NCBI RefSeq assembly: GCF_046105845.1
Contig: NZ_CP151004.1
Reading direction: 5' to 3' (one strand)
DNA from: Escherichia coli
GTDB taxonomy: Bacteria; Pseudomonadota; Gammaproteobacteria; Enterobacterales; Enterobacteriaceae
Length of the DNA stretch: 64,000 bases
Part shown: positions 16,346-45,181 of the stretch, one piece after another
How positions within the stretch are numbered: position 1 is the stretch's first letter
How the letters are laid out: each line of letters begins with the position of its first letter
Notes under the pieces: generated by a model
What the model saw: the letters and a program-made list of their open reading frames with translations, nothing else
Told to the model about the DNA's origin: nothing
Database searches by the model: none
Made by a program: the position numbers and the translations under genes

Positions 16346-17398
16346 ATGAAAAAGACCCGTACAGCCAATTTGCACCATCTTTATCATGAACCCTTACCCG
16401 AAAACCTGAAGCTCACGCCGAAGGTCGAAGTGGATAATGTTCATCAACGACAGACAACGGATGTCTATGAACATGCTTTGACGATTACCGCCTGGCAGCA
16501 GATTTACGATCAGCTGCATCCGGGCAAGTTTCATGGTGAATTTACGGAAATTCTACTCGATGATATTCAGGTTTTTCGTGAATACACCGGTCTGGCGCTG
16601 CGTCAGTCGTGCCTGGTCTGGCCGAACTCGTTCTGGTTTGGCATTCCGGCGACGCGCGGTGAGCAGGGATTTATCGGTTCGCAATGTTTGGGAAGCGCAG
16701 AAATTGCGACGCGCCCTGGCGGCACCGAGTTTGAATTAAGTACGCCGGACGATTACACGATCCTGGGCGTAGTGCTTTCTGAAGATGTCATCACCCGTCA
16801 GGCTAACTTTTTGCATAATCCGGATCGGGTATTACATATGCTGCGTAGCCAGTCGGCGCTGGAAGTGAAAGAACAGCATAAAGCCGCGCTGTGGGGCTTT
16901 GTCCAACAGGCGCTGGCGACATTTTGCGAGAACCCGGAAAATCTTCATCAGCCTGCTGTGCGTAAAGTGCTGGGGGATAATTTGCTAATGGCGATGGGGG
17001 CGATGCTGGAAGAAGCGCAGCCAATGGTGACGGCGGAAAGCATCAGTCATCAGAGTTACCGTAGATTACTTTCCCGCGCCCGTGAATATGTGCTGGAAAA
17101 TATGTCTGAGCCGGTGACGGTGCTGGACTTGTGTAATCAACTGCATGTCAGCCGCCGCACGCTACAAAACGCGTTTCACGCTATTTTAGGCATTGGCCCA
17201 AATGCGTGGCTGAAACGCATTCGCCTGAACGCCGTACGCCGCGAACTGATAAGCCCTTGGTCGCAAAGCACAACGGTAAAAGACGCAGCCATGCAGTGGG
17301 GATTCTGGCATCTGGGGCAATTCGCCACGGATTATCAGCAACTGTTTGCCGAGAAGCCGTCACTGACGCTGCATCAGCGGATGCGGGAATGGGGGTGA
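16346..17398 (+). CDS. eutR: EutR AraC-family transcriptional activator of the eut operon
   Basis: 350 aa with C-terminal AraC-type HTH; last gene of eut cluster. Confidence 0.92.
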
Positions 17399-17403
17399 GG
17401 GAG

Positions 17404-18306
<903 letters not shown>

Positions 18307-31514: not shown

Positions 31515-31546
31515 GCCCGGAGGCGCTTCCCGCGATCCGGGCTTTT
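31515..31546 (+). terminator. Terminator-like hairpin between cysA and cysM (possible partial terminator)
   Basis: gcccgga..tccgggc stem followed by ttttt. Confidence 0.5.
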
Positions 31547-31567
31547 TAATGGCAAGGTTTGTAATCT

Positions 31568-31603
31568 GTAGGCCTGATAAGACGCGCAAGCGTCGCATCA
31601 GGC
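31568..31603. repeat. REP (repetitive extragenic palindrome)
   Basis: gtaggcctgataagacgcgcaagcgtcgcatcaggc, classic E. coli REP-type palindrome. Confidence 0.85.
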
Positions 31604-31626: not shown

Positions 31627-32538
31627 GTGAGTACATTAGAACAAACAATTGGCAATACGCCTCTGGTGAAGTTGCAGCGAATGGGGCCGAATAACGGCAG
31701 TGAAGTCTGGTTGAAACTGGAAGGCAATAACCCGGCAGGTTCGGTGAAAGATCGTGCGGCGCTTTCGATGATCGTCGAGGCGGAAAAGCGCGGGGAAATT
31801 AAACCGGGTGATGTCTTAATCGAAGCCACCAGTGGTAACACCGGCATTGCGCTGGCAATGATTGCCGCGCTTAAAGGCTATCGCATGAAATTGCTGATGC
31901 CCGACAACATGAGCCAGGAACGCCGTGCGGCGATGCGTGCTTATGGTGCGGAACTGATTCTTGTCACCAAAGAGCAGGGCATGGAAGGTGCGCGCGATCT
32001 GGCGCTGGAGATGGCCAATCGTGGTGAAGGAAAGCTGCTCGATCAGTTCAATAATCCTGATAATCCCTTCGCTCATTACACCACCACCGGGCCGGAAATC
32101 TGGCAGCAAACTGGCGGGCGCATTACCCATTTTGTCTCCAGCATGGGAACAACCGGCACTATCACCGGCGTTTCACGCTTTATGCGCGAACAATCCAAAC
32201 CGGTGACCATTGTTGGCCTGCAGCCGGAAGAGGGCAGTAGCATTCCCGGCATTCGCCGCTGGCCTGCGGAATATCTGCCGGGGATTTTCAACGCTTCGCT
32301 GGTGGATGAGGTGCTGGATATTCATCAGCGAGAAGCGGAAAACACCATGCGCGAACTGGCAGTGCGGGAAGGAATATTCTGTGGCGTCAGCTCCGGCGGC
32401 GCGGTTGCCGGAGCACTGCGCGTGGCAAAAGCTACCCCCGGCGCGGTGGTTGTGGCGATCATCTGCGATCGCGGCGATCGCTACCTTTCTACCGGGGTGT
32501 TTGGGGAAGAGCATTTTAGTCAGGGGGCGGGGATTTAA
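31627..32538 (+). CDS. cysM: Cysteine synthase B (O-acetylserine sulfhydrylase B) CysM
   Basis: 303 aa (V)STLEQTIGNTPLVKLQRMG..; GTG start; ORF-track start 31549 lies in REP and is rejected. Confidence 0.93.
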   Translation: MSTLEQTIGNTPLVKLQRMGPNNGSEVWLKLEGNNPAGSVKDRAALSMIVEAEKRGEIKPGDVLIEATSGNTGIALAMIAALKGYRMKLLMPDNMSQERRAAMRAYGAELILVTKEQGMEGARDLALEMANRGEGKLLDQFNNPDNPFAHYTTTGPEIWQQTGGRITHFVSSMGTTGTITGVSRFMREQSKPVTIVGLQPEEGSSIPGIRRWPAEYLPGIFNASLVDEVLDIHQREAENTMRELAVREGIFCGVSSGGAVAGALRVAKATPGAVVVAIICDRGDRYLSTGVFGEEHFSQGAGI

Positions 32539-32540
32539 GA

Positions 32541-32933
<393 letters not shown>

Positions 32934-32934
32934 G

Positions 32935-33000
<66 letters not shown>

Positions 33001-33013
33001 GAGAAAAAATTAA

Positions 33014-33865
33014 ATGAGTAGTTTGTTGTTGTTTAACGATAAGAGCAGGGCATTGCAGGCGGATATCGTCGCCGTGCAGTCGCAGGTAGTGTACGGCAGC
33101 GTAGGCAACAGCATTGCCGTGCCTGCTATCAAACAGAACGGCCTGAATGTCTTTGCCGTGCCGACGGTATTGCTGAGCAATACACCGCATTATGACACTT
33201 TCTACGGTGGTGCGATTCCGGACGAATGGTTTAGCGGCTATTTGCGTGCGCTTCAGGAGCGTGATGCGTTGCGCCAACTTCGTGCTGTAACCACGGGCTA
33301 TATGGGAACGGCATCGCAAATCAAAATCCTTGCCGAGTGGCTGACTGCGCTACGCAAAGACCATCCTGACCTATTGATCATGGTCGATCCGGTGATTGGC
33401 GATATTGATAGCGGAATTTATGTCAAACCTGACCTTCCCGAGGCGTATCGACAATATTTACTGCCGCTGGCGCAGGGAATTACCCCCAATATTTTTGAGC
33501 TGGAAATCCTGACCGGTAAAAATTGCCGCGATCTCGACAGTGCCATTGCTGCCGCAAAAAGTCTGCTTTCAGACACATTAAAATGGGTGGTGATTACCAG
33601 CGCCTCCGGTAATGAAGAAAATCAGGAGATGCAGGTGGTGGTGGTCAGTGCCGACAGCGTGAATGTCATTTCCCATTCACGGGTTAAAACTGACCTGAAA
33701 GGGACTGGCGACCTGTTTTGTGCTCAGCTTATCAGTGGCTTGTTGAAAGGTAAGGAATTAACTGACGCGGTACATAGCGCGGGATTACGTGTGCTGGAGG
33801 TGATGCGCTATACCCAGCAGCATGGTAGCGATGAATTGATTTTGCCGCCGCTGGCGGAAGCATAA
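33014..33865 (+). CDS. pdxK: Pyridoxal/pyridoxine/pyridoxamine kinase PdxK
   Basis: 283 aa [32 protein letters not shown].. Confidence 0.94.
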
Positions 33866-42102: not shown

Positions 42103-42321
42103 ATGGAAAAAGAGCAGCTGATTGAAATAGCCAATACGATAATGCCGTTTGGCAAATACAAAGGGCGTCGCTTAATCGACCTGCCGGAGGAGTATCTTCT
42201 GTGGTTTGCCCGCAAAGATGAGTTCCCGGCAGGGAAGCTCGGTGAGCTAATGCAAATCACGCTGCTGATTAAAACTGAGGGGCTGACGCAACTGGTCCAG
42301 CCCCTGAAGCGTCCTCTTTAA
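42103..42321 (+). CDS. ypeB: Small protein YpeB (DUF3820)
   Basis: 72 aa MEKEQLIEIANTIMPFGKYKGRRLIDLPEEYLLWF..; starts 1 nt after ligA stop. Confidence 0.85.
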   Translation: MEKEQLIEIANTIMPFGKYKGRRLIDLPEEYLLWFARKDEFPAGKLGELMQITLLIKTEGLTQLVQPLKRPL

Positions 42322-43405: not shown

Positions 43406-44332
43406 ATGAATTATTCTTTAAAACAATTAAAGGTTTTCGTCACAGTAGCGCAGGAGAAAAGTTTTAGTCGTGCAGGAGAGCGTATCGGCCTGAGCCAGTC
43501 GGCAGTGAGTCACAGTGTGAAGGAGCTGGAAAATCATACTGGTGTTCGCCTGCTGGACAGAACCACGCGTGAAGTGGTGCTTACAGATGCAGGGCAGCAG
43601 TTGGCTTTGCGTCTTGAGCGACTGCTGGATGAACTTAACAGCACGTTGCGCGATACCGGGCGTATGGGGCAACAACTGAGCGGAAAAGTTCGGGTCGCTG
43701 CCAGCCAGACCATTTCCGCGCATCTTATTCCGCAATGCATTGCTGAAAGCCATCGCCGCTATCCAGATATTCAGTTTGTCCTGCACGATCGTCCGCAGCA
43801 GTGGGTGATGGAAAGTATTCGCCAGGGAGATGTCGATTTTGGCATCGTCATCGATCCAGGCCCAGTGAGCGATCTGCAATGTGAAGCGATTCTTTCCGAG
43901 CCTTTCTTCTTGCTTTGCCATCGCGATAGCGCTTTGGCCGAGGAAGATTATGTACCCTGGCAGGCATTACAGGGAGCGAAATTGGTGTTGCAGGATTACG
44001 CGTCAGGCAGCCGACCGCTGATTGACGCAGCTCTGGCGCGCAACGGTATTCAGGCGAATATTGTGCAGGAGATTGGTCATCCGGCGACGCTGTTCCCGAT
44101 GGTAGCCGCAGGCATCGGCATCAGTATTCTTCCCGCACTGGCGCTACCATTGCCTGAAGGTAGCCCACTGGTGATAAAGCGCATTACACCGGTGGTAGAA
44201 CGCCAGTTGATGCTGGTGCGCAGGAAGAACCGTTCACTTTCCACCGCCGCACAAGCGTTATGGGACGTGGTACGAGACCAGGGCCATGCGCTAATGGCTG
44301 GGCGGGAAGGGGATCCGTTGTATCAGATATAG
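43406..44332 (+). CDS. yfeR: LysR-type transcriptional regulator YfeR
   Basis: 308 aa [42 protein letters not shown].. (N-terminal HTH); divergent from yfeH. Confidence 0.92.
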
Positions 44333-44664
44333 ATATCGATCTGAGTCGTTTTTTCAACAGGATTTGGAAGGGATGCATTCAGAGACAAACGCTGCTCTTT
44401 CTCCTGCGCTTTTTCTGCCTGCTGTCTTTGCAACTGCGCCAGTTGTGTTTCCAGTAGGGTGATTTGCTGCTGAATCAATTCGGCCTGTTTTTGCTTGTCT
44501 TCAGCACTGCCGCTAGTGTCTGCAATCTCTTTAATTTGTTGAGTGAGTTTGATGATTTGCTGACTTATCCGCGCAATTTGTGAAGCAACATCGCTACCTT
44601 CTGATGCCCTGTTACTACTCTGTGTTTGTATGGAAGGAATTGAAGTTGGAGAGATAGTGGCCAT
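44323..44664 (-). CDS. Hypothetical coiled-coil protein, FlxA-like (flagellar-regulon-type protein of unknown function)
   Basis: 113-aa ORF with GAGG SD 8 nt upstream of ATG; S/T-rich N-terminus then Q/L/K/E-rich predicted coiled coil ([57 protein letters not shown]), C-terminus ..QIDIYI; own sigma-28-like promoter; family assignment from memory, not searched. Confidence 0.6.
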
Positions 44665-44783: not shown

Positions 44784-44859
44784 TGGTGGGTCGTGCAGGA
44801 TTCGAACCTGCGACCAATTGATTAAAAGTCAACTGCTCTACCAACTGAGCTAACGACCC
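44784..44859 (-). tRNA. lysV: tRNA-Lys (anticodon UUU)
   Basis: Reverse complement reads GGGTCGTTAGCTCAGTTGGTAGAGCAGTTGACTTTTAATCAATTGGTCGCAGGTTCGAATCCTGCACGACCCACCA; 76 nt with encoded CCA. Confidence 0.97.
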
Positions 44860-44863
44860 GAAG

Positions 44864-44939
44864 TGGTGGGTGATGACGGGATCGAACCGCCGACCCCCTC
44901 CTTGTAAGGGAGGTGCTCTCCCAGCTGAGCTAATCACCC
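44864..44939 (-). tRNA. valY: tRNA-Val (anticodon UAC)
   Basis: Reverse complement reads GGGTGATTAGCTCAGCTGGGAGAGCACCTCCCTTACAAGGAGGGGGTCGGCGGTTCGATCCCGTCATCACCCACCA; 4-nt spacer to lysV. Confidence 0.97.
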
Positions 44940-44985
44940 ACTTCGGTACTTCACATTTTTACAAGAAATTTAGCTGGTGAGAAAG

Positions 44986-45061
44986 TGGTGGGTGATGACG
45001 GGATCGAACCGCCGACCCCCTCCTTGTAAGGGAGGTGCTCTCCCAGCTGAGCTAATCACCC
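44986..45061 (-). tRNA. valX: tRNA-Val (anticodon UAC)
   Basis: Identical 76-nt tRNA-Val copy. Confidence 0.97.
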
Positions 45062-45105
45062 ACTTCTCAATTTCTTGCTACACGGCGGAGACTACATAAA
45101 GTAGT

Positions 45106-45181
45106 TGGTGGGTGATGACGGGATCGAACCGCCGACCCCCTCCTTGTAAGGGAGGTGCTCTCCCAGCTGAGCTAATCACCC
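45106..45181 (-). tRNA. valU: tRNA-Val (anticodon UAC)
   Basis: Identical 76-nt tRNA-Val copy; first gene of the tRNA operon. Confidence 0.97.

Follow-up and report, generated by a model that had tools for sequence, protein, structure and literature searches.

A yfeS-less cysM/yfeK junction in Escherichia coli: the empty and probably ancestral allele of a gene presence/absence polymorphism

In the 64-kb stretch of Escherichia coli DNA analysed here (the window), cysM and yfeK meet tail to tail with yfeS absent between them. This junction is an ordinary, already documented gene presence/absence polymorphism that is visible in public annotation. We hold it very probable that the allele in the window is the empty one, which is both ancestral and in the majority, that yfeS is acquired cassette cargo and not a lost core gene, and that transcripts from the two sides would terminate inside the opposite genes. 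Only two features are mildly new, namely the 8-bp repeat around a cross-genus cassette that lacks a recombinase, and the presence of unrelated cargo at this junction in several lineages. The finding carries little weight in itself and its lesson is mainly methodological.

The cysM and yfeK ends

The product of cysM matches RefSeq CysM over residues 1-303 at the identity given in Table 1, and cysA lies immediately upstream, which together identify the gene as CysM, the last gene of cysPUWAM. RefSeq annotation of homologous loci places the equivalent start at the GTG at 31627, and the reading frame closes with a TAA stop (32536-32538) after the C-terminus ...GEEHFSQGAGI. The 133-bp cysA-cysM spacer holds a hairpin with a TTTTT run behind it (CCCGGA...TCCGGGCTTTTT, about 31516-31548) and, further on, a palindrome of the REP type (GCCTGATAAGACGCGCAAGCGTCGCATCAGGC, about 31572-31603), and this content explains why a mechanical list of open reading frames extends cysM upstream, through the REP, to an ATG at 31549. 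On the opposite strand, the yfeK stop TAA is read as TTA on the plus strand (32541-32543). The yfeK product is 96% identical in amino acids to YfeK and belongs to the DUF5329 family, matching Pfam PF17263 with 108.4 bits against a cut-off of 27 (E=2.3e-31). Its start codon at 32907-32909 is GTG in the window (CAC on the plus strand) and ATG in the E. coli C-type locus.

The initial annotation had described the two stop codons as 2 bp apart, and the open reading frames bear this out, with GA alone at 32539-32540. The same spacing is found in the RefSeq annotation of E. coli AST215 and GMF054, and in Pseudocitrobacter faecalis. It had also placed a WGR-domain gene, yfeS, between yfeK and cysM in K-12 and reported this gene missing from the window, and on both points it was right. 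MG1655 has the order yfeK-yfeS-cysM (b2419, b2420 with the WGR domain, and b2421), so that cysM and yfeK are not directly adjacent in K-12. A tblastn search with YfeS found nothing resembling this protein, either at the junction or elsewhere in the 64-kb window, the best match having E=1.1.

The MG1655 locus shares with the window the order and orientation of cysPUWAM, yfeK, pdxK, crr and ptsI, as well as a sigma-E-type promoter motif upstream of yfeK. It differs in a 961-nt cassette at the junction, which brings yfeS, a spacer of 188 bp with REP sequences, and another tail for YfeK (124 aa in all), all absent from the window with its closely spaced stops. MG1655 YfeS is a PF05406/WGR protein encoded 188 bp from cysM, and YfeS of the K-12/C type matches the WGR family (PF05406) with E=2.6e-18.

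Table 1. Features around the cysM/yfeK junction of the window, with the state of the junction and its cargo in relatives; positions are those of the window or of the locus named
Feature	Source	Position	Strand	Basis or description
cysM (cysteine synthase B)	window	31627..32538	+	ORF; 99% amino-acid identity to RefSeq CysM
Spacer GA	window	32539..32540		2 nt between convergent stop codons
Empty insertion point GATTA	window	32539..32543		junction alignments with yfeS-carrying alleles
yfeK (DUF5329, 122 aa, tail ...DKTVPAQ-stop)	window	32541..32909	-	ORF; Pfam PF17263; GTG start
Palindromic stem-loop	window	32543..32576		arms ATTGCGCAGGC (32543-32553) and GTCTGCGCAAT (32566-32576), 12-nt loop
Putative sigma-E-type promoter motif	window	32943..32970	-	GAAACTT (32970-32964), 16 nt, TCAAA (32947-32943); motif match only
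Junction	second E. coli-cluster representative			stops 2 bp apart; yfeS absent
Junction	Pseudocitrobacter faecalis			stops 2 bp apart, one base different from window; yfeS absent
Junction	Enterobacteriaceae MAG UBA5654			stops 1 bp apart; yfeS absent
Junction	Escherichia sp. E1V33			cysM/yfeK ORFs overlap; yfeS absent
Junction	Citrobacter amalonaticus and a Superficieibacter			stops 31-32 bp apart; yfeS absent
Junction	Pseudocitrobacter MAG			junction filled; yfeS present, 124-aa YfeK tail
Cargo	E. albertii, locus L008	4331-6149		1.8 kb, 34.5% GC, two ORFs (280 aa; 175 aa, weakly matching DKNYY)
Cargo	C. sedlakii, locus L011	4364-8182		3.8 kb, two ORFs (about 630 aa; 610-650 aa), TPR repeats in one of them
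Cargo	Superficieibacter electus, locus L012	4376-4891		0.5 kb, 140-aa DUF4440/SnoaL-like protein

Distribution of the two alleles

A 101-bp probe across the window junction was searched against 5426 complete E. coli genomes. The contiguous cysM/yfeK junction is present in 4038 of them (74%), and the yfeS segment, at a coverage of at least 80%, in 1381, or about a quarter; the two classes jointly cover 5419 genomes. The minority, yfeS-carrying class includes the K-12, B and C strains, while the majority, empty class includes O157:H7, O145:H28, ECOR29, AST215, GMF054 and ST2747. Contiguous in so many genomes, the spacing in the window is a stable allele and no sequencing accident. A tight junction could in principle come from an error of assembly or sequencing, for instance the collapse of a region, an explanation to which we give next to no credence, as the same junction recurs in those 4038 complete genomes and in 54 independent metagenome contigs, and both the cysM and the yfeK reading frames are intact.

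To call yfeS "missing", as the initial annotation did, frames its absence as a loss, and the counts do not support this framing: the junction lacking yfeS is the majority state and is nearly identical in P. faecalis. K-12 is not a neutral reference here, because the K-12, B and C laboratory strains hold an accessory gene that is absent from three quarters of E. coli. A gene that is missing relative to K-12 need not, therefore, have been deleted.

To look beyond E. coli, a YfeK scan with one genome per species yielded 22 loci, onto which cysM, yfeS, yfeK, pdxK and crr were mapped (Table 1). The cassette sits exactly at the cysM/yfeK junction and is shared with at least one Pseudocitrobacter, and the junction appears to be a permissive site that takes unrelated cargo in other lineages. 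The presence/absence polymorphism of yfeS also exists within Pseudocitrobacter, where the MAG is filled (locus L006, 4376-5316) and P. faecalis is empty (locus L005), with the same GGATTAAT boundaries.

Structure and foreign character of the yfeS cassette

We aligned the window to NCTC10537, a genome that carries yfeS and has the same cassette as E. coli C. Homology continues past the cysM stop to ...TTTAAG(G)ATTA and restarts 974 bp on at TT(T/G)CGCAGGCAC, in the tail of yfeK. Across alleles the cassette measures 950-975 bp, and it comprises yfeS, a spacer with REP-type repeats and a hairpin, and three codons that replace the end of yfeK; YfeK has 124 aa and ends in ...PAKGN in filled alleles, and has 122 aa and ends in ...PAQ in the window. 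The filled alleles that we examined came from the Pseudocitrobacter MAG and from E. coli, the latter comprising the C type, the MG1655 type (961 nt from repeat to repeat) and a third allele, and every one of them has the 8-bp direct repeat GGATTAAT at both cassette ends. Counted by locus, the repeat was found at both ends, as sought for a target-site duplication, in four E. coli loci (three distinct alleles) and in one Pseudocitrobacter allele. The empty site has a single GATTA, which in filled alleles recurs at the two cassette ends as the repeat GGATTAAT.

The cassette stands out from its surroundings in composition, yfeS having 38.9% GC where cysM has 55.5% and the whole window 53%. Between E. 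coli and the Pseudocitrobacter MAG, yfeS is 95.4% identical in DNA, as against 89.4% for the flanking cysM and 85.8% for yfeK, and comparison of the whole cassette gives the same picture as yfeS alone; this cross-genus sharing rests on one Pseudocitrobacter MAG contig. On inspection, the cassette has no terminal inverted repeats, transposase or integrase, and yfeS is its only gene. It has no PADLOC match, and no Pfam match besides WGR. Taken together, the empty junctions of relatives, the low GC content, the cross-genus identity and the distant homologues given below indicate a horizontally moving accessory cassette that was placed in an older, empty junction.

More distant relatives of yfeS are known from other settings. 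Full-length YfeS homologues occur in Fusobacterium at ~40% identity, and an unannotated paralogue lies on the 50-kb E. coli plasmid NZ_CP098226.1 (3366-4067, hit H110; 70% amino-acid identity, 96% coverage). A phage vector for yfeS was considered and rejected, since phage records gave distant partial matches only, in Listeria phage fragments.

The REP-type repeats of the cassette spacer have a median of 12 matching places per E. coli genome. It has been considered whether the cassette may move between genera by an undescribed site-directed mechanism, for example REP sequences with a RAYT transposase, and not by homologous recombination of its flanks. The cysM/yfeK junction would then be a dedicated Enterobacteriaceae insertion site and the window an unoccupied target. 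We regard this proposal as quite doubtful.

Deletion and replacement as alternative histories

The initial annotation left open whether yfeS was lost by a precise deletion or was never acquired. The second possibility fits the data, while the first predicts an excision junction that was found in neither the E. coli genomes nor the metagenome contigs searched. A lineage-specific, precise deletion from a K-12-like order could have proceeded by recombination between the GGATTAAT repeats, as the 8-bp direct repeat around the cassette in all filled alleles could mediate excision. Such an event would leave TTTAAGGATTAATT(T/C)CCTT(T/C)CGCAGG, with a 124-aa YfeK ending in ...AKGN and a 3-bp gap between the stops. 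At the junction, deletion thus predicts TTTAAGGATTAATTTCCTTTCGCAGG and the ...AKGN tail, whereas the window shows TTTAAGATTATTGCGCAGG and a YfeK ending in ...PAQ. Among the 5426 E. coli genomes, no full-length match to the predicted junction exceeded 93% identity, and the best full-length matches to this probe were the ordinary empty allele, aligned with gaps. Metagenome contigs likewise gave no match to the predicted junction, while 54 contigs matched the positive control, the empty junction. Moreover, the window junction is the same as that of thousands of E. coli and is one base away from that of P. faecalis. The window junction was accordingly rejected as an excision scar of the K-12 arrangement, given that the predicted junction is absent from these genomes and contigs and the window tail differs, and we consider a precise deletion highly improbable.

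Replacement of alleles is another possibility. The lineage may once have had yfeS, its filled allele later being replaced homologously by an empty allele from another E. coli, in which case the absence of yfeS would be secondary in this lineage and the empty state would still be ancestral for the species. The region is indeed mosaic, and its divergence between E. coli strains is unusually high. The 3′ end of cysM and yfeK differ by 3-7% between strains, which indicates frequent recombination, and empty and filled alleles both circulate at appreciable frequency. Identity to MG1655 is 94-97% in the cys operon and 99-100% in the pts genes; given this mosaic structure, junction alleles have probably been exchanged by homologous recombination, and the history of the lineage cannot be read from the junction alone. 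Against a replacement, the nearest genomes over both 1.2 kb and 24 kb (AST215, GMF054 and ST2747) are all empty, and no flank specifically resembles a filled-allele haplotype, so there is no positive sign of such a history. A peak of divergence at the junction, the signature of an imported flank, was rejected because divergence from MG1655 is raised across the whole cys operon and is unpeaked. We consider a replacement unlikely, and favor the reading that the window retains the empty, ancestral allele.

Other cargo at the junction

The junction holds different cargo in three other species (Table 1). In E. albertii, C. sedlakii and S. electus, homology stops directly past the cysM stop and past YfeK ...DKT(V). 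A defence role for the cargo genes was rejected, as they have no PADLOC match. The simplest reason for the recurrence at this site may be that insertion between genes arranged tail to tail breaks no promoter.

At hot spots between core genes, E. coli genomes carry small islets of strain-specific genes. The cysM/yfeK junction is like these in being a fixed site between core genes that is mostly empty and that holds low-GC cargo varying by lineage. It differs in that no integrase, tRNA or IS accompanies the one or two cargo genes, and in that the 8-bp direct repeat of the yfeS cassette comes without terminal inverted repeats or a transposase.

Transcription and termination across the junction

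In K-12, yfeK and yfeS are reported to form one operon behind a sigma-E promoter (PMC2685091; PMC11502571). yfeK is listed among sigma-E promoters (PMC3326320), and the candidate motif upstream of yfeK in the window (Table 1) can be compared with the sigma-E -35 consensus, GGAACTT (PMC3326320; PMC11502571). In the empty allele, yfeK would be a single-gene unit behind this putative promoter, rather than part of a yfeK-yfeS unit. Most E. coli would thus have a single-gene yfeK, unlike the K-12 operon, and phenotypes of K-12 yfeS, such as the boric-acid sensitivity attributed to this gene (PMC11502571), would therefore not apply to most strains.

The initial annotation held that the junction leaves no room for a terminator. 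This is correct for the 2-bp spacer itself and does not extend to the sequence beyond it, where a stable stem-loop with an 11-bp stem begins 5 nt past the cysM stop and falls within the final 12 codons of yfeK. Folded as plus-strand RNA, the stem-loop has a predicted energy of -16.4 kcal/mol (z=-2.9, with 2 of 200 shuffles as good), and as minus-strand RNA it has -14.0 kcal/mol (z=-1.5). No U tract follows it on either strand (the tails are UAGCGCAUGU on the plus strand and AAUCUUAAAU on the minus strand), and a terminator scan found nothing, so a canonical intrinsic terminator at the junction was rejected. Rfam gave no known RNA family at the junction, its calls in the window being tRNAs only.

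The stem-loop is near-invariant across 57 empty-allele sequences, in a search whose pattern fixed most of the left arm. The variants are two singleton changes, each of which keeps a G-U pair in the plus-strand RNA, and with so little variation covariation was set aside as support for the structure. The arms are also partly forced by the coding sequence (IAQ...PAQ). The stem-loop is not conserved in UBA5654 or in Escherichia sp. E1V33. Filled alleles have an altered left arm, and no such stem-loop is predicted for L001, the filled allele that was folded.

The anatomy of the junction resembles that of overlapping bidirectional terminators. At convergent E. coli genes of this kind, a hairpin in the shared region pauses the polymerase, and head-on and trailing collisions bring about release (bioRxiv 10.1101/2022.10.23.513370). 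These terminators were described by Ju et al. (2019), as cited in that preprint, with ynaJ-uspE as an example. The cysM/yfeK junction likewise has a convergent pair, no canonical intrinsic terminator, and a palindrome in the region that both transcripts would cross. It differs in that the hairpin lies inside coding sequence, and the resemblance, a convergent pair with a hairpin in the shared region, is one of anatomy as read from sequence.

We infer that the cysPUWAM and yfeK transcripts would each end inside the opposite gene. Polymerase may first pause where the tail of yfeK forms the 11-bp palindromic hairpin, and could then be released by head-on collision, as at overlapping bidirectional terminators. 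Rho may act in addition on the untranslated read-through RNA, above all on the C-rich read-through from yfeK. The first 78 nt of the yfeK read-through RNA, which is antisense to cysM, have a C/G ratio of 1.9, a measure that is only heuristic for Rho, and 20 YC dimers; the cysM read-through RNA turns C-rich only about 200-300 nt downstream. The combination of hairpin, collision and Rho is predicted to be the most likely mechanism of termination, with Rho as a plausible back-up. Overlap of the two transcripts, which the initial annotation had expected, is thus likely and would be unremarkable.

Tightly spaced convergent ends also occur elsewhere in the window. eutR (plus strand, ending at 17398) and hemF (minus strand, ending at 17404) converge 5 bp apart, and ypeB (plus strand, ending at 42321) and yfeH (minus strand, ending at 42318) overlap by 4 bp (42318-42321). 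Of the roughly nine convergent CDS pairs annotated in this neighbourhood, three have such tight ends. Beside the other two, the cysM/yfeK spacing is ordinary in its local setting. Together, the empty and the filled allele offer a natural comparison for the study of convergent cysPUWAM/yfeK transcription, with a 2-bp spacer in one and a spacer of REP sequences and a hairpin in the other.

Other differences in the window

The best match to the window among the 5426 complete RefSeq E. coli genomes is 98.3% identical over 24 kb (20000-44000) and 98.7% identical over 1.2 kb at the junction. With best matches only this close, the lineage of the window (Escherichia/Shigella) appears sparsely represented in the collection.

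Close to the junction, the 3′ part of pdxK (33600-33799) is ~90% identical to MG1655 and to the nearest genome, GMF054, while neighbouring bins are 97.5-99.5% identical; this divergent 200-bp patch looks like a small recombination mosaic. Further along, between yfeR and the tRNA-Lys/Val cluster, a ~4.3 kb yfeN-xapA-xapB-xapR block present in K-12 and GMF054 is absent from the window (44323-44664 and 44787-45181). Rfam made no call for the RtT sRNA at the yfeR-tRNA position in the window, a position at which it is annotated in GMF054. The arrangement lacking yfeN-xapABR is found in about 1306 of the 5426 E. coli genomes, including strain 042, and in the window the site holds instead a 113-aa open reading frame that is annotated elsewhere as a FlxA-like protein.
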